Below are positions 6,741 through 61,775 of a stretch of 64,000 bases of DNA, in pieces (position 1 is the stretch's first letter; every line of letters starts with the position of its first letter). The notes beneath the pieces are model-generated. The model saw nothing but the letters and a program-made list of their open reading frames with translations, searched no databases and was not told the origin of the DNA. The DNA comes from an uncultured bacterium (GTDB taxonomy: Bacteria > Hydrothermota > Tepidihabitantia > Tepidihabitantales > DTDR01): contig CAZDHW010000002.1 in assembly GCA_964505415.1 (NCBI GenBank), forward strand, positions 45,226 to 109,225. Reading direction: 5' to 3'. The position numbers were made by a program, and so were the translations under genes.

Positions 6741-6817
6741 ATTTACCCCTCCCTTATAATAATCTTTTATTATAAAGAAACTTGAAAAAAAATCAAGTTT
6801 TAGTATTCTATTTAACT

Positions 6818-8206
6818 ATGAAGGTAATTCTTGCAGGTTATAATGTAGATATTAAGATTCTGAAAAAGATTTCTGAAAAATATAAAAAATTTTTGACTCC
6901 AGAAACTTTTTCTTGTGCCTATGCCCGTATTAGTCGTTACGATTTATCTGTTGACAAATTGAGAGAAAAAGCTTTAAAAGAGATTAAAGAAGCAAGAGAA
7001 ACAAACAAGAGAATTATTTTTGAAATGGGACATTCTTCGGTTGCTGAGCACGCCGTTTTCAATATCGATATTATTGAAATATCTCGTTTGGCGGTTGAGG
7101 AAGTTGAGCATTTTCGTTTGGCTTCTTATACAGAAAAATCGCAAAGATATGTGAAACTAAAAGAAGGTTTTTTTATCCCACCAGAAATAAAAAATAGTAA
7201 AATAGAAGAAAGATACAAAAAAATTGTAAAAAAATTATTTTTTACTTATGAAAATTTTATAAAAAAGGGAATACCAAAGGAAGATGCTCGTTATCTTTTG
7301 CCTTTAGCTACTTATACTCAATTAGGGATGACAGTAAATGCTCGCACTTTAGAATACATGCTAAGGAAATTTGCTGCTTCTTATCTATTAGAAATAAAAG
7401 AATTGGGGAGAAAAATTTTTAACAAAGTAAAAAGAGTTGCCCCATCCCTTTTGCGTTATTATTTACCAACCGATTATGAAATAAAAACCAAGGAAGAATT
7501 AAAAAATCTTTTGCAAAAATTTTCTTATTTTATTTCTGAAAAAGAAGAAAAGGAAAATGTGAAATTAATTGCTCATTATAATAACGATTTAATCCCTAAA
7601 GCAATTTTGTATCCTTATTTTTCTAATCCTTTTCCTAAAAATTGGCAATTAAAAGAAGAAGAAAAACTTACCATCATTAAAAAAAGTTTAGAGTATTTAG
7701 AATTTTATGATGCAGTTTTGAGAGAATTTGAATTAGGATTTTTAGTTTTTGAAGTTATTCTCAGTGCGGCTGCTTTTGCTCAATTAAAAAGGCATCGTTT
7801 AATAACATTAATAACCCAGCCTTACAATTTGGATTTAAAATTTACTATTCCACCAACAATAATTGAAAAAAATTTAGAAAAGGAATTTAAAGAAGCAGTA
7901 GCTGAAGTTGAAGAATTTTATGTTCTTTTAAGGGATAAATTAGATCCTTATAATGCTCAATACATCCTAACCAATGCCCATCGACGAAGAGTGTTGGTAG
8001 GAGTAAATCCTCGGGAGCTTTATCATTTTTCTCGTTTAAGAGAAGATAAAGACGCCCAATGGGAGATAAAAATAATTGCCCAGAAAATGAGCCAATTGGC
8101 AAAAGAAAAAATGCCGGAAATATTTCTTCTTCTCGGCGGTAAAGATAAATATCCCGAAATATATTTTTCAGTTTATCAAAAATATCCCAAATTTTTTCCT
8201 AAATAA
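6818..8206 (+). CDS. thyX: flavin-dependent thymidylate synthase ThyX, tandem (duplicated) ThyX-domain protein
   Basis: Two ThyX-like halves. Half 1 has GHSSVAEHAVF...EHFRLASYTEKSQRY and half 2 has LKRHRLITLITQPYN...NPRELYHFSRLREDKDAQWEIKIIAQKM. ATG at 6818 (MKVILAGY) is preferred over the TTG at 6782 used by the ORF track. Confidence 0.8.
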   Translation: MKVILAGYNVDIKILKKISEKYKKFLTPETFSCAYARISRYDLSVDKLREKALKEIKEARETNKRIIFEMGHSSVAEHAVFNIDIIEISRLAVEEVEHFRLASYTEKSQRYVKLKEGFFIPPEIKNSKIEERYKKIVKKLFFTYENFIKKGIPKEDARYLLPLATYTQLGMTVNARTLEYMLRKFAASYLLEIKELGRKIFNKVKRVAPSLLRYYLPTDYEIKTKEELKNLLQKFSYFISEKEEKENVKLIAHYNNDLIPKAILYPYFSNPFPKNWQLKEEEKLTIIKKSLEYLEFYDAVLREFELGFLVFEVILSAAAFAQLKRHRLITLITQPYNLDLKFTIPPTIIEKNLEKEFKEAVAEVEEFYVLLRDKLDPYNAQYILTNAHRRRVLVGVNPRELYHFSRLREDKDAQWEIKIIAQKMSQLAKEKMPEIFLLLGGKDKYPEIYFSVYQKYPKFFPK

Positions 8207-8262
8207 TATTTGAGTAAATAAAAACATAATAAAAATTATTTGATTTGTTCCAAATTTTGAAA

Positions 8263-8291
8263 TTGACTAATTTAATTCTTTTGAATATAAT
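8263..8291 (+). promoter_or_regulatory. sigma70-type promoter (TTGACT-N17-TATAAT) ending 5 nt before the ATG; probable leaderless transcript
   Basis: TTGACT at 8263-8268, a 17-nt spacer, TATAAT at 8286-8291, ATG at 8297. No room for a Shine-Dalgarno sequence. Confidence 0.4.
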
Positions 8292-8296
8292 ATAAA

Positions 8297-9454
8297 ATGA
8301 AAATAAAATTAGGGAAGAGATTTCTGATTGTTTATTTTATTCTTATTTTTTTAATATTAACTGCTATATTTTTTATTATTTCTTCTTTCCTTTTTAAGAA
8401 GTTAGAAGAGGAAATAACTTTGCGTTCACGCATTTTTGCTAAGTACATGTCGAAAGTTCAAGAAGAAGATTTGGAAAGTAGCTCCTATGAATTAGACATA
8501 ATTTTTGAAGAGGTGATTAAAAAAATTGATTTTCCTGTTGTTGTCATTGATGATAAAGGTGAAATTATTGCTTATCGGAATGTTGGTAAAAATCTAACTA
8601 AAGAAATATTAAAAAAGAAACTAGAACAATTAAAAAAAGAAAAACCGCCAATTCCTATTTTGGTTAATATTGGTGATACTACCAAATTTTTAGGTGAAAT
8701 TTATTATGGTCTTTCGCCAACAGCTAGATTTGTTCGTTTTTATCCTTATTATCAAATTTTGATTTTAGTTTTATTTATATTTTTGGGAATTTGGGCAATT
8801 TTTATTTATAAAAAAAGAGAAGAAGAAAAATTATGGACTTTTTTAGCAAAAGAAACTGCCCACCAGATGGCAACGCCCCTTTCTTCACTGATTGGATGGC
8901 TTTTGGCGATTAAAGATAAAATTGAAGAAAAATATTACGAAGAGATGATCTTAGATATTCAAAAAATGGAAATGGTTTTGGAAAGATTCTCGCGTATCGG
9001 TTTACCCCCAAAATTGGAGAATTTACCAATAAAAGAAATTATTGAAAAAGTTTGCGAACATTTTAAAAGAAGATTGCCACCAAATATTCAACTGGTTTTA
9101 GATTTAAAAACCAATCCTTTATTACCTTTAGATGAAGTACTTTTTAATTGGAGTTTAGAAAATCTTCTTAAAAATAGTATTGATGCTATTGGTTCTAATC
9201 CGGGTCGGATTGAAATCAAGGAGAATATTAATGATCGAAATTATGAAATTCAGATCATTGACAATGGCGAAGGGATTGACAAAAAAATTAGAGGCAAAAT
9301 TTTCAAAGCTGGTGTTACCAGTAAAAAATATGGTTGGGGTATTGGTTTATCGTTAGCCAAAAGAATTATTGAGGAATATCACTGCGGAAAATTATTATTA
9401 AGGGAATCAAAGAAAGGAAAAACAGTTTTTTCCATTATTTTAAAGAAAAAATGA
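8297..9454 (+). CDS. sensor histidine kinase (two TM helices, HisKA + HATPase_c); PorY-like partner of the downstream regulator
   Basis: H-box TAHQMATPLSSLIGWL, N-box NLLKNSIDA and G-boxes IDNGEGI / GWGIGLSLAK. Two hydrophobic segments near the N-terminus. Stop overlaps the next start (ATGA). Confidence 0.85.
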   Translation: MKIKLGKRFLIVYFILIFLILTAIFFIISSFLFKKLEEEITLRSRIFAKYMSKVQEEDLESSSYELDIIFEEVIKKIDFPVVVIDDKGEIIAYRNVGKNLTKEILKKKLEQLKKEKPPIPILVNIGDTTKFLGEIYYGLSPTARFVRFYPYYQILILVLFIFLGIWAIFIYKKREEEKLWTFLAKETAHQMATPLSSLIGWLLAIKDKIEEKYYEEMILDIQKMEMVLERFSRIGLPPKLENLPIKEIIEKVCEHFKRRLPPNIQLVLDLKTNPLLPLDEVLFNWSLENLLKNSIDAIGSNPGRIEIKENINDRNYEIQIIDNGEGIDKKIRGKIFKAGVTSKKYGWGIGLSLAKRIIEEYHCGKLLLRESKKGKTVFSIILKKK

Positions 9455-10962
9455 AAATCCTTTGGATTGATGATGAAATTGAACTTTTAAAACCTTTTAT
9501 CTATTTTCTTAAAGAAAAAGGGTACGAAATAAAAGAAGTGAATAATGGCATTGAAGGTTTAAATAAAATAAAAGAAGAAAATTTTGATTTAGTCTTTTTA
9601 GACGAGATGATGCCCGGTTTAGATGGTTTGGAAATTGCTCGGAAGATAAAAAATTATGATCCCAATATTTTTGTAGTGATGGTTACAAAAGTAAGTGACG
9701 AAGATTTCATTGATGAAGCCTATGCCAATTTGGTTGATGATTTTATCCTTAAACCTTTAAATCCAGTCCAGATTTTGGCCGTAATTAAAAGGTTATTAGA
9801 AAAAAAAGAAATCTTTAAAGAAAACTTAGTGCGTGAGTATTTAAAAATTCTTTCCGGAACAAAAGATTTTGAAACTTTTGAAGAATGGTGTGATTTTTAT
9901 CAACAATTGATAAAATGGCGAGAATATCTTAATCGATTTTCTTTAAATGATTTAAAAGAAAGTTACGAAGATATTTTAAAAGAGGGTAATGAAAATTTTG
10001 CTACCTTTATTGAGGAGAATTATTGTGATTGGTTAAAAAATAAAAAAGGGCCAATACTTTCTCACCAATTTTTTGAAAATTTTGTTAAGCCCCATTTGGA
10101 TAAATTGCCTTTATACTGGATAATTTTTGATTCGCTCCGGCTTGATCAGTGGTATTTTCTTTATAACATTTTGAAAGAACATTTTTTAATAAAACAGAAT
10201 TTTTATTGTTCGATTCTTCCTTCAGCAACACCTTATGCTCGTAATGCTTTGTTAAGCGGTTTAACACCGAAAAAAATTTTTGAATATTATCCAGAATATT
10301 GGGTATTTACTGATGTTGGACAAAATCGCTACGAAGAACAGCTTTTTCAAAAACTCTTAGCTAGAGAAAGAATTTCTTTAAAATATTTTTATTTAAAAAT
10401 TATAAGGATGGAAGACCTAATTGAGAAATTTGACTATCTTCTAAAGCCTGACGTTGGGATTGTGATAGTCATCATAAATTTTTTAGATTTTCTTATCCAT
10501 TCAGCTCGGGAAACTTTGTTTATTAAAGAAATTGCTGAAAATGAAGATTCTTTGTTAGAATTTACTAAAATCTGGTTTAACTCTTCTTTAATTTTTCAAT
10601 TTTTAAAAAAACTTAAAGAGAACGAGAGAAAAATAATTATTACTTCCGATCACGGATTTATTAAAGTGAAAAGGCCGACAATTATTTATGGAGGGCGAGA
10701 GATTTCGCCTAATCTTCGTTACAAATCAGGCGGTGGAATAACCATTGATAAAAAAGCTGCCTGGCTTTTAGAACCGAAGGAATTAGAATTGCCACAAGAA
10801 TTTTTGGGTGAAAAATACGCCATTTGTAAAAGCGATTATTATTTTATTTATCCTACCAAACCTAAAGAATATGAAAAAATTTATAAATTGACTTATCAAC
10901 ATGGAGGTATTTCACTTCAGGAAATGATTTTACCGGTAGGAATTTTATACCCCCTTGATTAA
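9451..10962 (+). CDS. response regulator with CheY-like receiver fused to a PglZ/alkaline-phosphatase-like effector domain (PorX-like)
   Basis: Receiver region MKILWIDDEIELL...DLVFLDEMMPGLDGLE...VVMVTK. C-terminal AP-superfamily motifs IIFDSLRLDQW, IIITSDHGF and YQHGGISLQEMILP as in PglZ. 503 aa, against roughly 518 aa recalled for PorX of P. gingivalis. Confidence 0.7.
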   Translation: MKILWIDDEIELLKPFIYFLKEKGYEIKEVNNGIEGLNKIKEENFDLVFLDEMMPGLDGLEIARKIKNYDPNIFVVMVTKVSDEDFIDEAYANLVDDFILKPLNPVQILAVIKRLLEKKEIFKENLVREYLKILSGTKDFETFEEWCDFYQQLIKWREYLNRFSLNDLKESYEDILKEGNENFATFIEENYCDWLKNKKGPILSHQFFENFVKPHLDKLPLYWIIFDSLRLDQWYFLYNILKEHFLIKQNFYCSILPSATPYARNALLSGLTPKKIFEYYPEYWVFTDVGQNRYEEQLFQKLLARERISLKYFYLKIIRMEDLIEKFDYLLKPDVGIVIVIINFLDFLIHSARETLFIKEIAENEDSLLEFTKIWFNSSLIFQFLKKLKENERKIIITSDHGFIKVKRPTIIYGGREISPNLRYKSGGGITIDKKAAWLLEPKELELPQEFLGEKYAICKSDYYFIYPTKPKEYEKIYKLTYQHGGISLQEMILPVGILYPLD

Positions 10963-10990
10963 ATTTATAAATTTATTTATAATAAATTTA

Positions 10991-11500
10991 ATGCCTGAAT
11001 TTACTTTTTTAGAAATTTTAAAAAAAGAACATTTTTTGATTGAAAGGGCATTACGAACCATGACTCTTTTGATAGTCAAAGACCAGTATTTAGAAAGAGA
11101 ATTTCAATTGGTTTACCAGATAATAAAAGATTTTGTAGAAGATAATCATTGTGCCAAAGAAGAAGAGATTTTATTTCCATTAATAAGAGAATACGAAATT
11201 GATGCCCAATTGGTGATGGTTAATGAGTCAGAAAAAAGAAAAGAAATTATTGAAACCTTGGAAAAAGGATTAAAAGATTTGGATAAAGAGAAATTTTTGG
11301 TAGGTTTACAAGATTTTATAGAAATTTTTGCTCGTCATATTTTTAAGGAAGAGGGTCTTATTTTTCCTGCCTGCGAAGCTCTTTTACCATCGGATATTAA
11401 TGAAAAAATTGTTAAAGATTTTAAAGAATATGAAAGAGATAACAGGGATTATGATTATTTTCTAAAAATCGTTGAAGATTTAGAAAAGATTATTTTCTAA
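10991..11500 (+). CDS. hemerythrin-like (HHE cation-binding) domain protein
   Basis: Two H..KEE..(L/I)FP motifs ([22 protein letters not shown]). ATG at 10991 is preferred over the upstream TTG, which would overlap the regulator's stop. Confidence 0.6.
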
Positions 11501-11501
11501 A

Positions 11502-14339
11502 ATGACTGAAAACAATTATATTTTTATTAAAGGTGCTCGGGAACATAATTTGAAAAATCTTACTTTGAAAATTCCACGTAACAAAATGGTAGTAATTACA
11601 GGGATTTCTGGTTCAGGTAAGTCTTCTTTGGCTTTCGATACTATTTATGCTGAAGGTCAAAGAAGGTATATTGAATCACTTTCTTCTTACGCTCGGCAGT
11701 TTTTAGGAGTATTAGAAAAACCAGATGTTGATTATATTGAGGGGCTTTCGCCCGCAATTGCCATTGAGCAGCGGACAGCAGCTAAAAATCCTCGTTCAAC
11801 TGTTGGTACCGTAACGGAAATTTATGATTATTTACGGGTTCTTTTTGCTCGTTTAGGAAAACCTTTCTGCCCATATTGTAATAAAGAAATTGCTTCTCAA
11901 ACATTAGACCAAATAATCGACCAAATCTCTTCTTATCCGGAAAATACTAAATTAATAATATTGGCACCTGTTGTTAGGGGAAGAAAAGGTGAATATCAAA
12001 CTCTTTTGGAAAAAATAAAAAAAAGGGGTTTTTTAAGGGTAAGAGTGGATGGAAAAATTTATGAGATTTCGGAAGTTAAAAATTTAGAAAAATATAAAAA
12101 ACATAATATTGAAATTCTTATCGATCGGTTAGTTTTATTAGAAGAAAATAAAAAACGATTGGCTGATTCGATAGAATTAGCATTAAAAGAGGGGCAAGGC
12201 TTATGTGTAGTGATTTTTGATGAGAAAGAGGAAAAAATTTTTTCTGAAAAGTTTGCCTGTGTCGATTGTGGTTTTTCTTATGAAGAAATTTCTCCCCGGC
12301 TTTTCTCTTTTAATTCACCTTACGGTGCTTGTTCAGCATGTCACGGCTTAGGGACAAAAATGGAAATTGATCCTGAAAGATTAATTGTTGACCCAAAGCT
12401 TTCCATTAATGAAGGAGTAATTGAAGTTTGGGGAGAGCCCAAAGGCCGTTGGTTTACTTCGGTTTTAAAAGCTTTGGCAAAAAATTATGGTTTTTCTTTA
12501 AATACTCCGTGGGAAAAACTGCCCAAGAAGGTGAAGGAGATAATTCTGTATGGTAGCAATGAAGAAATTTTGGTGGAGCACGAAAGATGGGACGGTACTC
12601 ACTACAAATTTTATGAAGAGTTTGAAGGGGTTATTCCCCATTTAATGCGAATTTATCAAACTACCGAATCAGAAAGTACCCGGGAATGGATCGAGAGATA
12701 TATGTCAATTTTACCTTGTCCCGAATGCGGTGGAGCACGCCTTAAAAAAGAGGCACTCTCAGTTAAAATTAACGGTTATTCTATTTATGACATTTGTAGA
12801 TTATCTATTAGAGAATGTTATCAATTTTTTGATAATTTAAAATTAAATGAACAAGAAAAAAAGATTGCTCAGGAATTAATTAATGAAATTAAAAAAAGAT
12901 TAAACTTTTTGATTGAAGTAGGTGTTGATTATTTAACTTTAGAAAGAAGAACTGATACCTTAGGAGGTGGTGAAGAACAACGAGTGCGGTTAGCAACGCA
13001 AATTGGCTCAGGTTTAGTTGGCGTAACTTATATTTTAGATGAACCCAGTATTGGCTTACATATGCGAGATAACCATAAGCTAATTCAGACATTATTAAGA
13101 TTAAGAGATTTAGGAAATACAGTTATAGTGGTGGAACATGATCGGGATACAATTTTAGCTAGCGACTATGTAATTGATTTAGGTCCGGGAGCTGGAGAAA
13201 AAGGTGGATATATTGTGGCTACTGGTACACCGGAAGAAATTATGAATAATCCCAACTCCTTAACCGGTGCCTATTTAAGTGGTAAGAGAGAAATTCCTTT
13301 ACCTGAAAAGAGAAGGAAAGGAAACGGTAAGTTTTTAATAGTGAAAGGTTGTTCGGAAAATAATTTAAAAAATATTGATGTTACAATTCCTTTAGGCATG
13401 TTTGTCTGTCTTACTGGTGTTTCCGGTTCGGGAAAAAGTACTTTTATGAATGATATCCTTTACAAAGCCTTAGCCGAAAAATTTTATGGTTCAAGAGAAA
13501 AACCCGGCAAATTTAAAGAAATTATTGGTTGGGAAGAAATTGATAAAGTGGTAAATATCGATCAGTCACCTATTGGTCGAACCCCTCGGTCTAATCCGGC
13601 AACTTATACTAACGTTTTTACACCAATAAGAGAACTTTTTGCTCAAACCAAAGAAGCCAAGATGAGAGGTTATTCTCCAGGAAGATTTTCTTTTAATGTT
13701 CGCGGTGGTCGTTGTGAAAACTGTGGTGGCGATGGAATTAAAAAAATTGAAATGCATTTTTTGCCAGATGTATACGTGACTTGTGAAGTTTGTAAAGGGA
13801 AAAGATATAATCGGGAAACTTTAGAAATAAGATATAAAGGAAAAAATATTTATGATGTTTTGGAAATGACTGTAAATGAGGCTTTAGAATTTTTCTATAA
13901 TATTCCAGCAATAAGAAGAAAATTAGAGATGTTGCGGGACGTAGGATTAGGTTACATAAAATTAGGACAGCCAGCCACTACTTTGTCTGGTGGCGAAGCT
14001 CAAAGGGTTAAATTAGCAAGAGAATTATCAAAAATTGGTACCGGAAAAACTTTATATCTATTAGATGAACCAACTACGGGTCTTCATTTTGAAGATATTC
14101 GATTATTGTTAATTGTTCTTAATCGGTTGGTGGATAAAGGTAACACAGTACTTGTTATTGAGCATAATTTGGATGTGATAAAATGTGCCGATTGGATAAT
14201 TGATTTAGGACCAGAAGGAGGCGAAAATGGTGGTTATATTGTTGCTTGTGGTACGCCCGAGGAAATTGCTCGCTGTGAAAAATCCTATACTGGAAAATTT
14301 TTAAGAGAAGTATTAAGAAGACACGGAATTCAATTCTAA
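11502..14339 (+). CDS. uvrA: excinuclease ABC subunit A
   Basis: 945 aa with two ABC ATPase modules ([19 protein letters not shown]; LSGGE signature twice) and zinc-finger CxxC pairs. Confidence 0.97.
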
Positions 14340-15116
14340 ATTTTTCTCACAAATTCGTTCAATTCTTTTGGCTTTATAAGTAGCGGAATCAATTTCAACA
14401 ATTACTCCCTCTACTTTTAAATTGGTATTTGCTGGGATAAGACGATAATTGATTCCGTAAAGTAATCTTTTTAAAGAGTCTTCGATCTCCATACCTAAAA
14501 TAGAGTCATGGGCACCGCACATTCCAACATCAGTTATATAAGCAGTGCCCTTAGGCAAAATTTGTTCATCGGCCGTAGGGATATGGGTATGGGTTCCTAA
14601 GACGGCGCTTACTTTTCCATCTAAAAAATATCCCATAGCTTTTTTTTCAGCAGTGGCTTCTGCATGAAAATCAACAATAATAATTTTTTTGTTATTAATT
14701 TTGATTAATTCTTCGTCAATTCGGCGAAAAGGACAATCTAGGGGTTTCATAAAAACTCTGCCGATAAGATTTATGATAATAACTAACTGATTATTTTTTT
14801 CTAGAATACATATTCCTTTTCCTGGGGCTTCTGGAGGATAATTGAGCGGTCGAATAATACGGTTTTCTTTTTCTAAATAATTAATAATCTCTTTGCGATC
14901 AAAAGCATGGTCACCTAAAGTAATGCAATCTATCCCCAAAGATAAAAAATCTTCAACAATTTGAGGAGTAATTCCAAAACCTCCCGCAGCATTTTCGCCA
15001 TTCACAATGATAACATCGGGTTTGTATCTTTCTTTTAAAAATTTTACTCCTTTCACCAATGCTTTCCTCCCGGATTCTCCACACACATCACCCAAAAAAA
15101 GAATTTTATAATTCAT
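14313..15116 (-). CDS. ymdB: YmdB-family metallophosphoesterase (2',3'-cyclic-nucleotide phosphodiesterase-like, TIGR00282)
   Basis: [20 protein letters not shown]... with GENAAGG and GTHTH motifs. Lies directly downstream of rny, as in B. subtilis. Confidence 0.85.
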
Positions 15117-23494: not shown

Positions 23495-25225
23495 TTAATT
23501 GGTAATTATCACTTTATATCTCTCACAAGAATTAGCCGTTTTTACAACTAAGAAATAGATGCCGCTTTTTAAATTTTTGGGAATTCCCAATTGATAATGA
23601 TGGGTGCCGGAAGAGAATTCTTTATTAAATATTACCTTTCCAGTGATATCGGAAAGAGAAATATTAAGAGAAGTTTTAGTATTTAAATCTAAGGATAAAT
23701 AGTTTCGGTTTACGATTGGATTGGGATAAATTTTCAGGCTGAATAGTTTATTGGTATTTCCTTCAGCAATTCCGGTTTCTAAATATTGCCTTGGAACTTG
23801 ATGAACAACAACTGGGTTAGTAGTCATTGACCCTTCACCTTGAACATAAAATCCCGCATTTAAGTCTATTAAATAGGTTATCCAACAATAATCATCAACA
23901 ATTGGTGCTAAGAATGGAAATCTTTTTGATGTTTGGTCAGGTTCAGTAATTCTTTTTGGAGGTGCCCAAGTGAGCCCACCATCGGTAGAAGCAGTTCCCC
24001 AAATGTCGGCTCTTAATCTTTCGGTTGTGGGTTCGTAATTAACAGGATCAAATTGTTCCCAAACAACATAAAGGTTTCCGTTTTCCGGATTTTGACCAAT
24101 TGAAGGTCGACAGGCAAAGGTCGCATTGTAACCTACGGTAGCTGCTAATGTTTCGGGCATAATTCGGCAAATCCTTGTTAATTCCGGATTTCTTCCGGGA
24201 ACATAATGCCACATTTCCACAGGAATAATTCTACCGGTATCTCTGATATTTGGTGTAAAACAAAGGACGAAGTTTGGTCGATCATCTCTATCAAAGAAAC
24301 CGCCAACGGAAGGAAGCCAAAGTTCAGGTAAAGTTTCACTACCTGGAGTGAAGATTGGTGGAATTGGGAAGGGGATTACATCACTCCAAGTTTCGCCACC
24401 GTCAGTAGAAATCCGATAAGCACCGCTATCTGGTCCAGTACCATCCCATTCAGTCCAGAAGATAACTACTTTGTCACTCCTTTTGGAAGCAAAAATTCCT
24501 TGGGCATTACCTAAGGGAGCGATGGGCTCACCAGGTTGAGGAGCAATCAATCTGGGCTCCTCAGGATTGCCCCAATCCCTTATTCGAATATAAAAAAGTC
24601 TATCTCGCGCACCGCCCGGGTCATCTTCTACCGCTAATACGTGAATCCAACCGTTGGCAGTTATTGCAATTGGTGGCCAAAGATAACCTTCTTGACAATC
24701 ACAGTAGTCAAATATTCCTTGTCCAGGAGCAACGTCTTTAGCAATTCGCGGAATAAGTCGTTGAGTTCCAGCAACATGACCAACAATATATTCAATTCCG
24801 TCCAACGGATTAACATCCAAATTGCCAAAGCCAGCCCGCGCATTTAAAACATCAATACCATCGTGACCAAACATCCATTGATGGGTAGTTTTGTCGTAAA
24901 AATTATATCTCATATTTCTGTCAGGAAAAGGATTTGCTTGAAGAGAAGTCATACCGGTAACATGAACGCCTCGCATATCATTATAAATCCTTTGCCAACC
25001 ATGGCTATTAAACTGCCAATCGTAGGTAGTAAAGAAAACAGTATCAACCCTGCCTACGAATTGAGAAACTAATACTTCCGCTGGTTTTTTGGTCGGTTGC
25101 AATTGGGCTTTTGATGGGTGACTATTTTTAACTTCTGGAGGCAACGCCTTTATCGGTATAAGATACTCTTTTGGTAAAGCAAATAAAACTAAAAGAGGAA
25201 TTAAAATAACTAATAATTTACGCAT
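23495..25225 (-). CDS. secreted BNR/Asp-box repeat (sialidase-like beta-propeller) protein with T9SS C-terminal sorting domain
   Basis: Signal peptide. Asp-boxes STDGGETWSD and STDGGLTWAP. C-terminal ~80 aa LKIYPNPIVNRNYLSLDL...SGIYFLVVKT is typical of Por-secretion CTDs (TIGR04183-like). Confidence 0.75.
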   Translation of the reverse strand: MRKLLVILIPLLVLFALPKEYLIPIKALPPEVKNSHPSKAQLQPTKKPAEVLVSQFVGRVDTVFFTTYDWQFNSHGWQRIYNDMRGVHVTGMTSLQANPFPDRNMRYNFYDKTTHQWMFGHDGIDVLNARAGFGNLDVNPLDGIEYIVGHVAGTQRLIPRIAKDVAPGQGIFDYCDCQEGYLWPPIAITANGWIHVLAVEDDPGGARDRLFYIRIRDWGNPEEPRLIAPQPGEPIAPLGNAQGIFASKRSDKVVIFWTEWDGTGPDSGAYRISTDGGETWSDVIPFPIPPIFTPGSETLPELWLPSVGGFFDRDDRPNFVLCFTPNIRDTGRIIPVEMWHYVPGRNPELTRICRIMPETLAATVGYNATFACRPSIGQNPENGNLYVVWEQFDPVNYEPTTERLRADIWGTASTDGGLTWAPPKRITEPDQTSKRFPFLAPIVDDYCWITYLIDLNAGFYVQGEGSMTTNPVVVHQVPRQYLETGIAEGNTNKLFSLKIYPNPIVNRNYLSLDLNTKTSLNISLSDITGKVIFNKEFSSGTHHYQLGIPKNLKSGIYFLVVKTANSCERYKVIITN

Positions 25226-25236
25226 TTTTCCTCCTT

Positions 25237-27069
25237 TTAATTAATTATTATTTTTTTCTTGTATGTTTTTTTGCCATTATTAAATAGGCAATAAAAAGTA
25301 CCTTTTTTGCCTTTGACATTCCAGATAACCGAATAATCACCTTTCTCTTTTCTTCCTTCTTCTAAGACTTTTACAATTTGACCGGTGATATCCAAGATAG
25401 AAAGTTTCACAAAAGCTGGTTCGTTTAGTGAATAATTTATCTTTACCTTATCTTTGGTAATTGTAGGATAGACAATTAATTTATTAGCCAAAAGATTTTT
25501 CTTTTGGTTTTCTTCAATTCCAACTTCTACTAATAAAGAGCAAGGAACTTGTAAATAAAGCACTGGATTATTAGTGACCACTCCTTCATTCTGAGGAACT
25601 CCACCGGCATCTTTATCGTTAATATAAGTTATATGTAAATGATTGTTAAAAGCAAATGGTGCTAAGGAGAAATAATCATCATCTTCACACATTCCTGGAG
25701 GCGCTCCGGGACTGGGTGAATTTGTTAAATTCAATACTTGGCCAATCTGTCCTCTTACTCCCCAAGTTCGACCGCCATCGGTAGAAACCGCCGCGTATAA
25801 TTCCCCGTTTATTCTTCTTCCTTGAGAAATATCAGTAGTATCTAAATTTCCAATCCAAACACAATATATATTTCCGTAATTATCAATTGCTAATTGGGGC
25901 CTATCCGCTGGTCTTCGCCAGGCATCGTTTTGGACATTGGGATAAGGCGAATACCACCAAGAATCACCAACAACTGAAAGATGTCCGGGACCAGAAACTA
26001 AAGTAATCCCGGTCTCTTCGCTCCAATGTCTAATCCGAGAAAATCCAGGATAAGTTGCTGGCCCCTGGCTACCTACCATTGAAAGAATTTCTGTCCAAAC
26101 TACATGTAAATTGCCATTTAAATCATAAATTGCATCACAATCAGTATAGGCAAATTCGTGGGGAAGAGTATCAGAAGGGTATTGGTAATTAGTGATTTGT
26201 CTTGGAGGTGTCCAAGTAGCACCACCATCATAAGATTCTCTTATCCAAACATTTTGTAAGACTTGAGAGTGCCTTTCTGGTAAATCAGAAGTATAAGCAA
26301 TAACTACTTTATTTCCATTTGGTTGGGCATAGATATCACCAGAAAGACAGGCCATTACAGTATCATTCATTATTGGCATCCAATTGGTAAAAGTATTTCC
26401 TCCGTCGGTTGAACGAGAATAATAGAAATCTTCAGAGGCACCAGCTGTCGGTGGTCTACCATATCCTAAAACATGAATTATTCCGGTGTTGCCGATTGTT
26501 CCGTGAGGCCAAATAATCTGATTGCCGTAAGGAGAAAAATTTGTGTCTGGTTCTATTGGTTCATTAAATATTCCTGTTCCCGGAGCAATTTCAATGGCTA
26601 AAGCCGAATATAAAGCACTTCCTCGTTGATGGTGAAAGAAACAGCATGCGCGGCCATCAGGAAACATTCCAAAAGTTACATATCCTGCCCGATAACTTCC
26701 ACTTGCCTGAACACCCATTCCTAATTGAACAGTGTCATCGTAATAAGCATTATAGTAGCAATATCTATTAGGATAGTTTGAAGAAGAATCGGGAGAGTGC
26801 ATCCAATCAAATCCCCAAATATTATTAGCATATTCTATTCTTGAACCAAGAGTACCATTCTGTTGATAATCAATAAAAGTTTGGGATAAAAGAATACCCG
26901 GTGATAAAGTAAAAGTTGGCGAAATAATCACGGGCAAAGAAACTTTCTCTAAACCAGTAGAAAAAGAAAGAGGAGAATAAAGTTGCCGATGTTTTAAGGT
27001 TAAAAATTTGGAATTAGGAAGAGAAAATAAAAAAGAGATTAAAAAAATAAAAATAATTGTTTTTTTCAT
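25237..27069 (-). CDS. secreted BNR/Asp-box repeat protein with T9SS C-terminal sorting domain (tandem paralog)
   Basis: Signal peptide. Asp-boxes STDGGNTFTNW, SYDGGATWTPP and STDGGRTWGV. CTD LIVYPTITKDKVKINYSL...GTFYCLF. Confidence 0.75.
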   Translation of the reverse strand: MKKTIIFIFLISFLFSLPNSKFLTLKHRQLYSPLSFSTGLEKVSLPVIISPTFTLSPGILLSQTFIDYQQNGTLGSRIEYANNIWGFDWMHSPDSSSNYPNRYCYYNAYYDDTVQLGMGVQASGSYRAGYVTFGMFPDGRACCFFHHQRGSALYSALAIEIAPGTGIFNEPIEPDTNFSPYGNQIIWPHGTIGNTGIIHVLGYGRPPTAGASEDFYYSRSTDGGNTFTNWMPIMNDTVMACLSGDIYAQPNGNKVVIAYTSDLPERHSQVLQNVWIRESYDGGATWTPPRQITNYQYPSDTLPHEFAYTDCDAIYDLNGNLHVVWTEILSMVGSQGPATYPGFSRIRHWSEETGITLVSGPGHLSVVGDSWWYSPYPNVQNDAWRRPADRPQLAIDNYGNIYCVWIGNLDTTDISQGRRINGELYAAVSTDGGRTWGVRGQIGQVLNLTNSPSPGAPPGMCEDDDYFSLAPFAFNNHLHITYINDKDAGGVPQNEGVVTNNPVLYLQVPCSLLVEVGIEENQKKNLLANKLIVYPTITKDKVKINYSLNEPAFVKLSILDITGQIVKVLEEGRKEKGDYSVIWNVKGKKGTFYCLFNNGKKTYKKKIIIN

Positions 27070-27083
27070 AAATACCTCCTTTT

Positions 27084-27701
27084 TTATCTCAACCTAAATT
27101 TATAAGGAATACTCACCCAAACTCTTACGGGCATATCTCTTTGTTTTGCCGGAGTAAATTTTGCTTGGCGGGCAGCTTCTAAGGCTGCTTTATCCAACTC
27201 GGGATTACCCGAAGATTTTAGAATTCTCACATCAGCAACAGTACCATCTATATCTACTAATGCTTCAACTACTACATCACCTTCGTGACCTAATTGGCGG
27301 GCAATTTCCGGATAGACCGGTTTGGGTAAATAAATTTCTTTTGGTTTTACTTCAACTTTCCAAAAAGGAACAATGGGTATCTCCGTTTCCTCTGTTTTTT
27401 TGTATATTTCAGTAAATTCAGTTTTTCCGATTTTAGAAGCTTCTTCTGCTTCTTCTCCTGTTTGGGCCTCCGAAACTACCGCAATTTTTGGTCTTTCTGC
27501 TGGTGGTGGTTCAGCAATCTGCTCTAATTCTGGGGGTAATTGTTCTAAAACAGTTCCAACTTCTTTCTTTGGGATATAAGGACGATAAAAAAATTCTTTT
27601 GGGAAAATTATAAAAACTAATAGAACAAAAGCCAAGGAAATTACTAATCCTATTCGGAAAACAATAGAATAATATTCATCCCATTCAAAACTTTTATTCA
27701 T
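27084..27701 (-). CDS. tonB: energy transducer TonB
   Basis: N-terminal TM anchor, Pro/Glu-rich linker (PPELEQIAEPPPAERPK) and a TonB C-terminal domain (GDVVVEALVDIDGTVADVRILKSSGNPELD...). Confidence 0.8.
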   Translation of the reverse strand: MNKSFEWDEYYSIVFRIGLVISLAFVLLVFIIFPKEFFYRPYIPKKEVGTVLEQLPPELEQIAEPPPAERPKIAVVSEAQTGEEAEEASKIGKTEFTEIYKKTEETEIPIVPFWKVEVKPKEIYLPKPVYPEIARQLGHEGDVVVEALVDIDGTVADVRILKSSGNPELDKAALEAARQAKFTPAKQRDMPVRVWVSIPYKFRLR

Positions 27702-27703
27702 TA

Positions 27704-28120
27704 TTAGCCCCCTATTCTTTTATACTCAGTAGCGAAGACTACTTTAAAAGCCTGAGCTTCTTTTAAGGCCTCTAAAATATCATTTATTCGACCATAATCA
27801 ACATCACTATCAGCCATAATTTCAGCTACCAATTCAGGATTATCAGCAACTTTTAAAAGCATTACGTTAATAACTCCATTGATATCTAAAACATTGTCAT
27901 CAATAGTTATCTTTCCGGTTTTGTCAACCCAAATATGGCTTACATTTCTTCTTTTTAGTAATCTCTCAGTAGCTTCCGCTTCTGGAAGGTTAACTTTAAG
28001 TCCTATTTCTGTTCTTAAGACAGTTGTAAGCATAAAAAAGATAATTAAAAGAAACGCAATATCACCGGTAGAAGCACTAGGAATTTCTGGCGATTCCCTT
28101 TTGATTAAAAATTTTCTCAT
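27704..28120 (-). CDS. exbD: biopolymer transport protein ExbD/TolR
   Basis: 138 aa with the ASTGDIAFLLIIFFM N-terminal TM helix typical of ExbD. Confidence 0.85.
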   Translation of the reverse strand: MRKFLIKRESPEIPSASTGDIAFLLIIFFMLTTVLRTEIGLKVNLPEAEATERLLKRRNVSHIWVDKTGKITIDDNVLDINGVINVMLLKVADNPELVAEIMADSDVDYGRINDILEALKEAQAFKVVFATEYKRIGG

Positions 28121-28123
28121 TTT

Positions 28124-28525
28124 TTACTCCTCTTTTACTGGTGTTAAACTAATTTTTTCTGCTTTGGCTAATTTTAGTTGATCAAAGGCTTGAATCATTA
28201 TTTTATAGGGAGCTTTTCGAGATACCTTTAGAGCAACAACCAATTCAGGATTTTTACTTAAAGCCTCTTGAACAATCTGTTTTATTTCGGGAATATTTAT
28301 TTTTTTGTCACCAATCATTACTTCTCCGTAAGGATTTACACTTACCGTTAAAATATTTTCTTTTTTTAATTTTACTTCGGCTCCTTTGGGAGGTAAAACA
28401 ATTTTTAGACCCTTTTCCCGGGAGAAAATTGAAGTAACCATAAAGAAGATGATTAACAAAAAAGCAATATCCCCAGTAGAAGCAGTAGGAATAGAAATTT
28501 TTTGAGGTTGTCTTTTTGGAAACAT
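28124..28525 (-). CDS. exbD: biopolymer transport protein ExbD/TolR (second copy)
   Basis: 133 aa with the same ASTGDIAFLLIIFFM motif as the first copy. Confidence 0.85.
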   Translation of the reverse strand: MFPKRQPQKISIPTASTGDIAFLLIIFFMVTSIFSREKGLKIVLPPKGAEVKLKKENILTVSVNPYGEVMIGDKKINIPEIKQIVQEALSKNPELVVALKVSRKAPYKIMIQAFDQLKLAKAEKISLTPVKEE

Positions 28526-28529
28526 AATT

Positions 28530-29138
28530 TCATAACTTTTTGGTCAAATATTCAATTAAACTTGCTGCTGAAGTTTCTAAATCGCGCGTATAACTATTAA
28601 TTTTCATTTGATAAAGAATGTGAATAATTGCCAATGGAGCAGCAATCATTAATCCCCATTTAGTGGTAATGAGAGCTTCGGAAATTCCGGAAGCCACTAC
28701 CGCTGGTTCTACTTCGCCAACCGCCGCTACCGCAGCAAACGCTCGAATCATACCGGTAACAGTGCCTAAGAAGCCAAAAAAGGGAGCCACCATGGTTAAA
28801 CCACCCATTAAATTCATTCCCCGATCAAGAAAACCTAATTCCGCTACTCCGGCTCGAGTTACCGCTTCTTCCATTGCTGTTTTACCTTCTTTTGCTTTTT
28901 CTAAGGCTGCCAAAAGAACTCGAGCTACTGGACTTTTTACCTGTTGACAAAATTTTATTCCGCCTTCAATTCCTTCCTTTTCAATTGTGGAAATAAGTTG
29001 TGAAGTAAATTTTTTAGCATTAAGCGAGGCAACAATAAAAAGAGTAATAAATCGTTCAATAACTAAAGCAATTCCTAAGACAGCGCAAGCTAATAAAAAC
29101 CACATTATACCACCACCTTTAATGAATTCCTGTATCAT
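28530..29138 (-). CDS. exbB: MotA/TolQ/ExbB proton-channel protein
   Basis: GGGIMWFLLACAVLGIALVIERF N-terminus, three TM helices and a conserved GTVTGMIRAF segment. Confidence 0.85.
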   Translation of the reverse strand: MIQEFIKGGGIMWFLLACAVLGIALVIERFITLFIVASLNAKKFTSQLISTIEKEGIEGGIKFCQQVKSPVARVLLAALEKAKEGKTAMEEAVTRAGVAELGFLDRGMNLMGGLTMVAPFFGFLGTVTGMIRAFAAVAAVGEVEPAVVASGISEALITTKWGLMIAAPLAIIHILYQMKINSYTRDLETSAASLIEYLTKKL

Positions 29139-43131: not shown

Positions 43132-44069
43132 AAATTAGTTCCCATTTTTCTAAACTTTTCGATTCTTTCTTTTAAAATTGTTTCTTTATCTTTCTTTAAC
43201 AATTCTTCCAAATTTCTCAAAATTGCTTCTTTTAAAATTTTAGCAGCTTCTTCCCAATTTTGATGAGCACCGCCTAACGGTTCTCTAACAATTTCATCAA
43301 TAATTCCAAATTGTAAAAGCTCATAAGCGGTTAATCTTAACATTTCGGCTGCTTTTTCGGCTTTAGAGCCGTCTCGCCACAAAATAGAAGCACAACCTTC
43401 TGGGGAAATAACTGAATAAATAGCATTTTCCATCATTAATACTCGATTGCCAATAGCAATTGCTAAAGCACCTCCTGAACCACCTTCTCCAATGATCACT
43501 ACCACAATAGGAACACTTAACAATGACATTTCTTTAATATTTTCAGCAATTGCCCATGCTTGGCCTCTTTCTTCAGCACCGATGCCAGGAAAAGCTCCTG
43601 GGGTATCGACAAAACTAATTATTGGTAAATTAAATTTTTCAGCTAATTTCATTACTCTTAAGGCTTTCCGGTAGCCCTCAGGATGAGGCATGCCGAAATT
43701 CCTTTTTAATTTTTCTTTTATTTCCCGTCCTTTTTGCTGACCAATGATGACACAATTAATTTCTTCTATTTTTCCTAAACCAGCGACTATCGCTGGGTCA
43801 TCACCATATCGGCGATCACCATGAAGTTCAATAAAATCTTCAGTAATTCTATCGATGTAATCTAAACTATAAGGTCTTTGGGGATGTCGAGCTAAAAGAA
43901 CCCGCTGCCAAGGAGTAAGTTTTTCAAAAATCTTTTTCTTGGTTTTCAATAAAGCAATTTCTAATTTTTTAATCTTATCTTCCTTACCAAGCTTTTTAGC
44001 TTCTTCAATTTTTTCGGTTAATTTCAAGATTGGTTTTTCAAAATCTAAATATTCTTTATATTCTTTCAT
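43128..44069 (-). CDS. accA: acetyl-CoA carboxylase carboxyltransferase subunit alpha
   Basis: 313 aa with [37 protein letters not shown]...[11 protein letters not shown]. Confidence 0.95.
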
Positions 44070-44902
44070 TTTTCCAGTGCTAATCCAAAATGATGAGCCG
44101 GGGGGAGATTTTTAATAATTTGATAATTATAAGAAAATTTTAAAAAACCCTTCGCTAAAGAGAAACCAATATTGAAGGTTTGATTATAGAAATTATAACC
44201 ACTACGAATTTTTAAAAAAGCCTCATAGACTAATTCAATGCCGACCTTAAAATAATTTTCTTTTTCTCTTAAATTTCTGGTGATTTCAAAATAATTATTT
44301 AAAAATTTAATAAAAGATAGTTTAACACCAAAATTAAAATTATTAGGTGGATAAAAATTTTGACGAAGATAATGTAACGGCAAAGAAAGATTAGTAAAAC
44401 TAGTATTCAAAGTTAAAAATTTTATTGGTCGATAATCAAAACCTAGATCAAAACCAACAGTATAATCGCAATAAGTAAACAGAGAAGCGTAATAAAATTT
44501 TGGAGAAAAGCCAATTTTAAGTCCGTCTTTAATTTTTTTTGACAATAAAAATGAAAAAATAAAATCTTGGGGATTATAATAGCCTAAAAAATCATCGGCT
44601 GGTAAATTATCTCGGTTTTCAATATTGCCGTAATTAAAACTTAAAATTTCTATTCCGTAATTAATAAATTTACTTTTACGCCCCAAAAAAATAAAAAATT
44701 GGGTGGCAGAAAGGGGATAGACACTATAATTACTTTCCAAAAAGAAATCTTGATAATCTCCGTATTTTGCTGGATTGTGATTTAAACCTCCTAAAGAAGT
44801 TTCTTCTAAATTTACTCCATTATTTAAAAAAGTAAAGGCAAAAAGAAAATTGAAAGAAAGAATTTTAAATTTCAATAATTTCCACATTGGCTCTCGGAAC
44901 AA
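44066..44902 (-). CDS. putative outer-membrane beta-barrel protein (hypothetical; PorP/SprF- or PorQ-like is speculative)
   Basis: Signal-like N-terminus, alternating aromatic/hydrophilic pattern, Tyr/Phe-rich. Start may be the internal Met (MWKLL). Confidence 0.4.
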
Positions 44903-45992
44903 TTACTCTTCTTTTATCTTCTAACTCTATTTCTACTACCCGAACATAAGATTCAGTCTCAATTTTTTGCAATTCTACTGGCAAAGAAATAACCTTACCA
45001 ATCATTCCAAAATATGGTTCACGAATTATTCTCACAGGAGTACCAATTTCTAATCCTTGAGAATATTTGAAATCACTTTCGAGATTTTTACTCATATTTT
45101 CTTTTCTAACTACAATTACTTCTGGTCTAATAACTCCCGCTCTTATTTGGGTGGCACCATTCATAGAAGCGATTTTCCCTTCCAAAGAAGATAACAAAGA
45201 AAAAGTTCGCTCGGCCATTTTCATTCTGCCGAAGCCTTCAGTAATTACCAAAGTTAAGTTGCAATTTTCTTGGCCGGTAATTGCTACACCGATATCATAA
45301 CCTAAAAAATCTTTAATGGTTTCGTCTTTGATACCCCCAACTACAATTCCTTTAACACCTATTTCTCTCGCTTTATTTAATGCTTCTAAGGTTACTAATG
45401 AACCACCGATTAAAATTTTCCCTTTACAATCGTCATCAATTTCTTTATCAGTTAAAACCTCGTTAGGATTATCACAAACCACCTTAAGAATTCCTCTGGT
45501 TTCGCCGCCGATACCAAATATTCCTTGAACCAAGCTGGCATAAGTTTCAATTATTACCCCTTCTTTTTCAATGATTTCTTTTACTACCCCATCAATGTAG
45601 GCAGTAATCTGTACCGGTTGGGGAGGTTCTCTAATTATTACCTGGCCAGTAATTTCCGAAATACTTTCAATTTTCCCTTTTACCGGGCTTCTCACATACG
45701 ATTTGAAAAGACCAAAGAAACTTTTAGTAAAGGCAATTACTTCATCTTTTTCCACATCTTCGCCTTCTTTTTTTACCATTACTTCCTTAATATCCTCTGG
45801 AGGAATATTTAACAAACCAGCAACATTAACAGTTTGAACATTACCCGGAAGATAAGTTTTAGCAACGATATCTTCACCTTTTACTTCCTCACCAATTTTC
45901 ACTAAAATTTCTCCTGGTAAGGGTAACCTTCTTTCTTTTCTGATTAAGGTATATTCAGTTACCTTTAGTCCCGGGATATAAGCATGCGCCAT
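44865..45992 (-). CDS. conserved hypothetical cytoplasmic protein (375 aa) with N-terminal barrel-sandwich-hybrid-like segment, Gly-rich Rossmann-like core and C-terminal KOW-like motif
   Basis: Intact ORF. Motifs GIFGIGGETRGILKV and GKILIGGSLVTLEALNKAREIGVKGIVVGG. C-terminal GTPVRIIREPYFGMIGKV. I could not assign a family. Confidence 0.5.
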   Translation of the reverse strand: MAHAYIPGLKVTEYTLIRKERRLPLPGEILVKIGEEVKGEDIVAKTYLPGNVQTVNVAGLLNIPPEDIKEVMVKKEGEDVEKDEVIAFTKSFFGLFKSYVRSPVKGKIESISEITGQVIIREPPQPVQITAYIDGVVKEIIEKEGVIIETYASLVQGIFGIGGETRGILKVVCDNPNEVLTDKEIDDDCKGKILIGGSLVTLEALNKAREIGVKGIVVGGIKDETIKDFLGYDIGVAITGQENCNLTLVITEGFGRMKMAERTFSLLSSLEGKIASMNGATQIRAGVIRPEVIVVRKENMSKNLESDFKYSQGLEIGTPVRIIREPYFGMIGKVISLPVELQKIETESYVRVVEIELEDKRRVIVPRANVEIIEI

Positions 45993-61293: not shown

Positions 61294-61775
61294 TTTTCGG
61301 GTATTTCCGAAAGGGAATTTAACAAAAAGGTGATATAAGTTGGTGCCTTTGGTTTTTTTAACAATCTCAGGTTGGTTTCACTCAATCTTTTATTACCTTT
61401 TAAAGTATTACATTCCACACAGGCACACACCAAGTTTTCCCATTCATCTTTACCGCCATAGGCTTTAGGAATGATGTGGTCAGTGGTTAAAGGAACATTT
61501 TTTCTTCCACAATATTGACAGGTATAATTATCTCTTCTTAAGATATTTTTTTTAGTTAAAGGGATTTCTCTTCTTTTCACTTTTACATAATAGGCAAGCC
61601 GAATAACACTGGGCATTACCAAACTGGTGCTTGGGGTTCTTATTTTTCTGCCGTTTTCCGATTCAACCAACTCCGCTTTCTTCAAAAATAACAATTTAAG
61701 AGCCTTCTTCAATTTACAAATGGTTAAAGGTTCGTAGTTGGCATTTAGAAGTAAAATCTTTTTCTCAAACATCAC
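61266..61775 (-). CDS. HNH endonuclease family protein
   Basis: CQYCGRKNVPLTTDHIIPKAYGGKDEWENLVCACVECNTLKGNK is an HNH/zinc motif. 169 aa. Confidence 0.8.
   Translation of the reverse strand: MMFEKKILLLNANYEPLTICKLKKALKLLFLKKAELVESENGRKIRTPSTSLVMPSVIRLAYYVKVKRREIPLTKKNILRRDNYTCQYCGRKNVPLTTDHIIPKAYGGKDEWENLVCACVECNTLKGNKRLSETNLRLLKKPKAPTYITFLLNSLSEIPENWRPYLFQK

Follow-up and report, generated by a model that had tools for sequence, protein, structure and literature searches.

A sensor histidine kinase gene translationally coupled to a porX ortholog in a candidate-division WOR-3 bacterium

Introduction

This report concerns two overlapping genes, one for a sensor histidine kinase and one for a response regulator with a PglZ effector domain, in a 64-kb stretch of contig CAZDHW010000002.1 from an uncultured bacterium (the whole of this stretch is referred to as the window). 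The closest protein matches are from candidate-division WOR-3 metagenome-assembled genomes (MAGs), with identities of 98, 84, and 83%. The locus is very probably a classical bicistronic two-component system of a WOR-3 bacterium, in which a membrane histidine kinase of the PorY type is paired with a true ortholog of PorX, a type IX secretion system (T9SS) response regulator. The kinase gene directly precedes the regulator gene and is translationally coupled to it, the domain content and the active site of PorX are intact in the regulator, and the pair is conserved in multiple phyla.

An initial annotation of this DNA described four consecutive open reading frames (ORFs) on the plus strand, encoding the kinase, the regulator, a hemerythrin-like protein, and UvrA, and all four are present (Table 1). 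The two tight junctions that it described were also found. The stop codon of the kinase gene and the start codon of the regulator gene share the tetranucleotide ATGA, and the stop codon of the hemerythrin gene at 11500 is followed by the uvrA ATG at 11502. The same annotation tied the first three genes into one module with a possible role in redox sensing, a proposal that is examined below together with the connection to the T9SS.

The response regulator

The regulator matched the NCBIfam model NF052313 (T9SS_RR_PorX) with a score of 514.8 bits, and the match extends over residues 2-499 of the protein and positions 2-510 of the 513 positions of the model. NF052313 is an equivalog model for the 'T9SS response regulator signal transducer PorX' with a cutoff of 300 bits. 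The Pfam domains of the protein are Response_reg (PF00072; 82.0 bits) and PglZ (57.5 bits, cutoff 25), and the PglZ effector domain that had been predicted from sequence motifs is therefore present. The protein aligned from end to end with the crystallised PorX proteins of Flavobacterium johnsoniae (8TED and 8P6F) and Porphyromonas gingivalis (7PV7) with E~1e-99, and its identity to the PorX of these two species is 34-35% over the full length.

The active site was compared with that of P. gingivalis PorX, in which D58, T272, and D361/H365 were mutated by Schmitz et al. (PMC9757075). In the alignment with 7PV7 these residues correspond to D51, T260, and D346/H350 of the regulator. By alignment, D51 is the phospho-acceptor of the REC domain, T260 is the nucleophile, and the metal ligands are D227, D346, H350, D400, H401, and H484. 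The catalytic threonine and the zinc ligands of the PorX structures, which the initial annotation had singled out for comparison, are all conserved. Its DHG and HGG-type motifs were also found; the first is D400-H401-G402, and the second, QHGGISLQEM, contains H484. Neither these two motifs nor any of D51, D227, T260, D346, H350, D400, H401, and H484 varies among 36 aligned WOR-3 homologs.

In the AlphaFold model of the regulator (pLDDT 87.7), a REC domain leads into three long helices and then into an alpha/beta domain. The helices span residues 105-135, 143-162, and 166-197 and form a bundle (~105-197) that is followed by the PglZ/alkaline-phosphatase-superfamily domain. When this model was compared with the PDB using Foldseek, the best 17 matches were all PorX chains, with a TM-score of ~0.72 and E values of 1e-46 to 1e-53 (lowest 6.8e-53). 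The next match after PorX was the PglZ of an Acinetobacter BREX system with an E value of 1.6e-10, a gap of 36 orders of magnitude. Because of the NF052313 score, the full-length alignment, the match in fold, and the conserved active site, the regulator is clearly an ortholog of PorX by the criteria of hidden Markov model (HMM), sequence, fold, and active site, and the earlier description of it as PorX-like is borne out.

The family itself is not rare. The initial annotation knew of PorX as the only REC-PglZ regulator, which as a claim of rarity is outdated, as its members occur across the FCB superphylum and over 5000 proteins in the database have matches at E<=1e-20. Some homologs of the regulator have already been labelled PorX by PGAP. 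In one Candidatus Stahlbacteria locus (L011:5438-6955) porX is apparently split, with a separate 128-aa REC ORF 12 nt upstream and no adjacent kinase; a frameshift, an error of assembly, or a pseudogene may account for this.

The sensor histidine kinase

The kinase has two transmembrane (TM) helices at residues ~9-32 and ~150-171, as determined by hydropathy and from its AlphaFold model (pLDDT 80.9). The extracytoplasmic sensor between them has ~108 aa and is modelled as one long helix that leads into a small alpha/beta sandwich, resembling PDC/PAS domains. The H-box histidine is H189 in ETAHQMATPLSS, and the HATPase_c catalytic domain follows. The sensor unit passes straight into the DHp helix and a HAMP domain is absent. 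The PGAP/source name given to 120 homologs of the kinase is the generic 'HAMP domain-containing sensor histidine kinase', and the HAMP label in these names is inaccurate because only ~17 residues separate the second TM helix from the H-box. In a Foldseek search of the PDB, the cytoplasmic part of the kinase matched the DHp-CA folds of ZraS, HK853, and WalK; the matches were to generic DHp-CA kinases only, and no PorY structure was among them.

The PorY of P. gingivalis has 395 aa, TM helices at residues 14-36 and 149-173, a periplasmic loop of ~115 aa, and the phospho-acceptor H193 (PMC5005315). The window kinase has this same architecture, and it is likened to PorY by the published description and not by sequence. 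Across phyla, the sensors of the kinases encoded next to porX retain their length and the residues F79-P80, P118, and Y136-Y137-G138.

Conservation of the kinase-porX pair

The genes porX and porY are ~1000 genes apart in P. gingivalis (PMC5005315), and the initial annotation pointed out that the corresponding genes are adjacent and coupled here. Both the ATGA overlap and a survey of other genomes support this. The survey covered 80 PorX loci of species-representative genomes, namely those with the best scores among at least 566, with taxon labels taken from record titles, and the ORFs of these loci were searched with the window proteins. Full-length kinase orthologs were recovered with E values of 1e-46 to 1e-136, whereas other, unrelated kinases of these loci reached only ~1e-11. 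Immediately upstream of porX, and on its strand, there is a kinase ortholog in 10 of the 13 WOR-3/Stahlbacteria loci, 5 of the 6 Eisenbacteria/Krumholzibacteria loci, 3 of the 5 Latescibacterota loci (plus one at a gap of 765 bp), both Gemmatimonadota loci (2/2), the single Zixibacteria locus (1/1), and several unclassified MAGs. The identical 4-nt overlap between the kinase gene and porX is found in loci L006, L007, L009, L012, and L081-L088. An adjacent ortholog of the kinase was found in none of the loci labelled as 22 Ignavibacteriota, 9 Bacteroidota, 8 Rhodothermota/Balneolales, and 4 Cloacimonadota, and one Ignavibacteria locus has a kinase ortholog 1.9 kb upstream of porX.

The genes that replace the kinase upstream of porX were identified by clustering the neighbours of the 80 loci. 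The T9SS translocon gene sprA/sov (TIGR04189, 963 bits) is the immediate upstream neighbour of porX, in the same orientation, in 17 of the 22 Ignavibacteriota loci and in 6 of the 9 Bacteroidota MAG loci (for example L043:2-5983, with porX at 5998). In these 23 sprA loci the arrangement is mutually exclusive with an upstream kinase. Additionally, the immediate downstream neighbour of porX, again on its strand, is tsaE in 50 of the 80 loci and in many FCB phyla (for example L074:7612-8136; TIGR00150, 108.9 bits). The product of tsaE is the 'UbK1' kinase, for which phosphorylation of the P. gingivalis PorX was reported in 2026 (PMC13241743), and in the literature the adjacency of porX and tsaE/ubK is described only within 81 P. 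gingivalis strains. No tsaE was found behind porX in the 13 WOR-3/Stahlbacteria loci or in this window, and the WOR-3 porX loci are without both the sprA and the tsaE/ubK neighbours. A literature search for PorX with the names of other FCB phyla returned no paper mentioning PorX.

These results demonstrate that the kinase-porX operon is real and that it recurs within the FCB superphylum outside Bacteroidota, and the adjacency is not a local accident because it is conserved across several phyla. The overlap and the adjacency in six lineages are genomic evidence that supports a cognate pairing of the kinase with PorX, as does a conserved promoter-like element that precedes the kinase gene but not porX. 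It is tempting to go further and to suggest, with somewhat less than even confidence, that the operonic pair is the ancestral FCB arrangement and that Bacteroidota and Ignavibacteriota later separated the kinase and came to carry porX between sprA and ubK/tsaE.

Promoter-like elements and transcription units

Two promoter-like elements bracket the pair. The element before the kinase gene is the best consensus match (11/12) in positions 8100-14500; its TTGAC and TATAAT recur without change in four relatives, in which the sequence farther upstream is unrelated. The second element (10/12) lies across the porX stop codon and the spacer behind it, and both of its hexamers as well as its 17-nt spacer are invariant in the four relatives. 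The two best sigma-70-like matches of the region are those directly before the kinase ATG and the hemerythrin ATG. The total number of promoter-like matches is not above that in shuffled sequences (33 vs 27.2 +/- 4.9), and the support for the promoters rests on their position and conservation and not on the scan statistic. Because conserved promoter-like elements precede both genes, the sequence suggests that kinase-porX and the hemerythrin gene belong to two transcription units.

As a separate observation, the -10 hexamers (window 8286-8299 and 10978-10993) end 5-7 nt before the ATG and a Shine-Dalgarno-like sequence is not visible, which together suggest leaderless or near-leaderless mRNAs in this lineage.

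Proposed mechanism and the link to type IX secretion

The pair would be expected to function as follows. An extracytoplasmic cue would be read by the ~108-aa PDC/PAS-like sensor between the two TM helices, and the signal would pass directly, without a HAMP domain, into the DHp helix, where His189 would be autophosphorylated. The phosphoryl group would then be transferred from His189 to Asp51 of PorX. By analogy with the PorX of P. gingivalis and F. johnsoniae, phosphorylation would lead to dimerisation, and in the dimer the Zn-dependent PglZ phosphodiesterase, with Thr260 as nucleophile, may be switched on toward oligonucleotides. Phosphorylated PorX may also, or instead, bind the T9SS motor protein PorL/GldL and an extracytoplasmic function (ECF) sigma factor, as its analogs do. 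The expected outcome would be a tuning of T9SS expression or activity.

Several lines of evidence connect the pair to the T9SS. PorX homologs are reported from all T9SS-encoding species (PMC10951265), and the PorX family is tied to the T9SS because sprA and porX are linked in Ignavibacteriota and Bacteroidota loci. The initial annotation referred to T9SS cargo genes with a C-terminal sorting domain (CTD) in the window. One such gene, for a BNR-repeat protein with a type A CTD, stands above threshold, and a CTD cargo gene is also present in the relative L081; a second candidate in the window is below threshold. The CTD cargo gene suggests, at the level of sequence, that the organism uses a T9SS. 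A possible outer-membrane protein of the PorV/PorQ family matched NF033709 (PorV_fam) with an E value of 6.9e-13 and 48.9 bits against a cutoff of 90, and NF033711 (PorQ) with 36.8 bits against a cutoff of 220. Regulation of the T9SS by the kinase-PorX pair is a plausible reading and, by analogy, a reasonable one. A search of the literature gave no paper that connects WOR-3 bacteria with the T9SS.

Two observations concern the surroundings of these candidates. The PorV/PorQ-like protein overlaps the end of a 375-aa ORF without a family match (44066-45992, minus strand), and the 278-aa and 375-aa proteins could be a divergent T9SS outer-membrane pair. Also, a cluster of ExbB/TolQ, ExbD, ExbD, and TonB genes (27084-29138, minus strand) is immediately downstream, in window coordinates, of the two BNR/CTD genes (23495-27069) and on the same strand.

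The following points weigh against the reading of the locus as a PorY-PorX system that regulates the T9SS. When the window kinase and six kinases from other phyla were searched against NCBIfam, only generic matches of the AtoS/ZraS/NtrB class were obtained and no PorY model. The role of PorY as the physiological kinase of PorX is debated even in P. gingivalis (PMC9757075). A common signal or ligand for the PorX-adjacent kinases of different phyla is not implied, because the identity of their sensors falls to 14-34%. The survey drew on the best-scoring loci, with taxa read from record titles. No T9SS core gene (porK/L/M/N, sov/sprA, porT, or sigP) was found in the 64-kb window, in which ~50 ORFs were searched against NCBIfam and/or Pfam and, additionally, with phmmer using SprA and with the TsaE HMM. 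A terminator-like site was not seen between porX and the hemerythrin gene, and read-through from the pair is possible.

It could be argued from the lack of core genes in the window, and from the position of porX amid housekeeping genes, that the two proteins are a genuine PorX-family pair whose output in WOR-3 bacteria is something other than the T9SS, for example a stand-alone oligonucleotide-degrading or second-messenger-clearing enzyme that is switched by an envelope signal. The phosphodiesterase of PorX acts on cyclic and linear oligonucleotides, with a physiological role that is unresolved (PMC9757075), PorX pathways 'beyond canonical T9SS-associated outputs' have been described (PMC13241743), and the WOR-3 loci are without the sprA and tsaE/ubK neighbours of other phyla. 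We nevertheless consider this reading unlikely. The CTD cargo in the window and in L081, the PorV/PorQ-like match, and the linkage of sprA and porX in sister phyla all point toward secretion, as does the co-occurrence of PorX and T9SS in the literature (PMC10951265). Furthermore, the equivalog-level score and the strictly conserved REC surface and active site argue that the function has been retained.

The hemerythrin gene

The protein encoded behind the regulator is a hemerythrin/HHE-domain protein, as had been annotated, but its start is almost certainly the ATG at 10991 (169 aa). This start is preferred to the TTG at 10955 (181 aa), which would overlap porX; an AT-rich spacer lies between the two, and the TTG was dropped as the orthologs are 167-169 aa long and begin 26-29 nt behind the stop codon of porX. 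H14, H53-x3-E57, and H116-x3-E120 are invariant. There are 11 close homologs, with 71-97% identity and 167-169 aa, all from one narrow genus-level WOR-3 clade, and beyond these the similarity falls to 28%.

In the initial annotation the hemerythrin was a possible third component of the module. In this reading it would bind O2, NO, or iron and modulate the kinase or PorX, tying control of the T9SS to the redox state. The three genes are adjacent and on the same strand, no terminator-like site was seen after porX, and all examined members of the genus-level clade share the gene order. In addition, the PorXY of P. gingivalis responds to hemin and contributes to resistance to H2O2 (PMC8050853), which makes a redox or iron input attractive in concept. 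A wider comparison makes the three-gene module improbable. A match to the hemerythrin was found in 0 of the 80 species-representative PorX loci, and WOR-3 relatives with 56% PorX identity (L082-L084) have the overlapping kinase-porX pair followed by a convergent transglutaminase-like gene, without a hemerythrin gene. The order pgk-gap-thyX-HK-porX-Hr-uvrA-ymdB-rny-zapA-pheT, in which HK and Hr stand for the kinase and the hemerythrin gene, is collinear in every clade member examined. Because the whole region from pgk to pheT is collinear, the adjacency of the hemerythrin gene reflects only recent common ancestry and carries no independent information. The gene is also packed more tightly with uvrA than with the regulator gene, because only 1 nt separates its stop codon from the uvrA ATG compared with 28 nt between the porX stop codon and its own ATG, and the conserved promoter-like element lies in the latter spacer. 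Signalling-domain fusions, which had been suggested as a check on the module, were looked for among the orthologs, and all 11 close homologs are single-domain proteins. The nearest distant homolog has NifU, peroxiredoxin, and DUF1858 as neighbours, and this setting of stress and Fe-S repair genes points to a role in protection or repair.

We judge the hemerythrin to be a separate small di-iron-type protein and not a conserved partner of the kinase and PorX. It is probably transcribed with uvrA from its own promoter, as the conserved element suggests, and its role is probably protection from oxidative, nitrosative, or iron stress. There is a slim chance that it was recruited behind porX in one WOR-3 genus and that read-through gives a PorXY-type system an O2, NO, or iron input. 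If true, it would be a hard-wired counterpart of the responsiveness of P. gingivalis PorXY to hemin and oxidative stress.

A role of the PglZ protein in BREX-type phage defence rather than in signalling is effectively refuted: the shared PglZ domain, the structural match to the Acinetobacter protein (E 1.6e-10), and the weak matches to BREX_PglZ_3 (87.9 bits) and to PADLOC PglZ models (<=60 bits, covering the C-terminal part only) are set against a cutoff of 250 bits and a PorX score of 514.8 bits, an N-terminal REC domain and three-helix bundle that are specific to PorX, and a neighbourhood of thyX, kinase, hemerythrin, and uvrA genes in housekeeping surroundings with no brxA/B/C, pglX, or brxL nearby.

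Other features of the window

The locations of the features discussed are given in Table 1. The G+C content of the window is ~31%, and apart from the genes above its content is that of housekeeping: tpi, pgk, gap, thyX, uvrA, ymdB, rny, pheT, metK, ahcY, RNase G, thrS, infC, pheS, era, accA, purM, polX, proS, uppP, and ddl. An Rfam scan of positions 7800-12000 gave zero matches. A 60-aa ORF on the minus strand within porX (10085-10267) is regarded as spurious.

Table 1. Features of the kinase-porX locus and of related genes in the window (window coordinates).
Feature	Position	Strand	Details
Promoter-like element TTGACT-17-TATAAT	8263-8291	+	ends 5 nt before kinase ATG
Sensor histidine kinase gene	8297-9454	+	385 aa; HATPase_c 58.1 bits (Pfam)
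Kinase/regulator stop-start overlap ATGA	9451-9454	+	translational coupling
porX (REC-PglZ regulator)	9451-10962	+	503 aa; NF052313 514.8 bits; Response_reg 82.0 bits, PglZ 57.5 bits
Promoter-like element TTGATT-17-TATAAT	10955-10983	+	10/12; across PorX stop codon and spacer; ends 7 nt before hemerythrin ATG
Hemerythrin/HHE-domain gene	10991-11500	+	169 aa from ATG; PF01814 50.7 bits; judged outside the two-component module
uvrA	11502-14339	+	945 aa; context only, outside the module
Candidate T9SS cargo gene (BNR repeats, type A C-terminal sorting domain)	23495-25225	-	TIGR04183 44.9 bits (cutoff 23); PF18962 40.6 bits (cutoff 27)
Second CTD candidate, sub-threshold	25237-27069	-	Pfam 22.2 bits (cutoff 27)
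Possible PorV/PorQ-family outer-membrane protein, sub-threshold	44066-44902	-	278 aa; context only

Several other genes of the window gave results that bear on annotation. The product of the canonical uvrA gave a strong PADLOC match (341.6 bits) to 'mad3' of the MADS defence system. Cross-homology of this kind is to be expected among UvrA-like ABC ATPases, and automated annotation of defence genes could be misled by it; the uvrA orthologs of relatives carry the UvrA_DNA-bind and UvrA_inter domains. The gene thyX (6782-8206, plus strand) encodes 474 aa in which two stretches matched Thy1, giving two such domains (TIGR02170, 149.7 bits). The protein has the appearance of a flavin-dependent thymidylate synthase that was duplicated in tandem or fused; the long form is kept at 459-461 aa in the relatives L085 and L087. 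A 169-aa protein (61266-61775, minus strand) has an HNH domain that is nearest to those of the RNA-guided nuclease IscB (76 bits against a cutoff of 175) and Cas9d. It is too short for IscB and is probably a stand-alone HNH endonuclease. An alpha-oxoamine synthase is encoded at 56301-57485 on the minus strand, and its best model is the CFB-group serine palmitoyltransferase (562.9 bits, just below the cutoff of 640), a hint that a WOR-3 bacterium may synthesise sphingolipids. Next to it is a gene for a GNAT-domain protein (55173-56297).

Significance and comparison with known systems

The regulator is a member of a known and already auto-annotated PorX family, and the locus encodes an ordinary signalling pair of two genes. 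For comparative purposes the conserved operonic kinase is modestly useful, since in the model organism porX and porY are not linked and doubt has been cast on their partnership (PMC9757075). At least six FCB lineages other than Bacteroidota have a kinase of PorY architecture directly before porX, as in the coupled pair described here. This supports a dedicated partnership of the kinase and PorX with independent genomic evidence, and the operonic loci are simpler systems in which to study the signal. The linkage of sprA and porX and the multi-phylum adjacency of porX and tsaE/ubK are cheap, testable pointers to the wiring of PorX.

The BREX PglZ proteins have the PglZ catalytic fold and the metal-binding motifs in common with the regulator. 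They are larger (640-910 aa), are without a REC domain, and occur with brx/pgl partner genes, and the regulator matches none of these features. Compared with single-domain hemerythrin/HHE proteins (PF01814; RIC/YtfE-like), the window hemerythrin scores above the PF01814 threshold and keeps three ligand motifs of the H-x3-E type. Its match to the RIC/YtfE models is weak (25.8 bits against a cutoff of 204.7), with three histidines only, and it is without a signalling domain and confined to one narrow WOR-3 clade.

The known PorX proteins (P. gingivalis PGN_1019 and F. johnsoniae Fjoh_2906; PDB 7PV7, 7PVK, 8P6F, and 8TED) have the same architecture of REC domain, three-helix bundle, and PglZ domain as the regulator, with a length of 518 aa compared with 503 aa, and their phospho-acceptor aspartate, threonine nucleophile, and all zinc ligands are conserved in it. 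The host is a WOR-3 bacterium, whereas the known PorX proteins are from Bacteroidota, and the window porX is translationally coupled to a kinase gene whereas the known porX genes are orphans. The window porX also lacks the downstream tsaE/ubK1 neighbour that P. gingivalis shares with most other FCB lineages, and the upstream sprA neighbour that is seen in Ignavibacteriota and some Bacteroidota MAGs. The P. gingivalis PorY (PGN_2001) and the window kinase both have ~390 aa, two TM helices at the same positions, a periplasmic loop of ~110 aa, a phospho-acceptor histidine at ~190, and a C-terminal HATPase domain, and each is paired with PorX, the window kinase on genomic evidence. They differ in the location of their genes, as the P. 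gingivalis porY is ~1000 genes away from porX whereas the window kinase gene is immediately upstream of porX and overlaps it.

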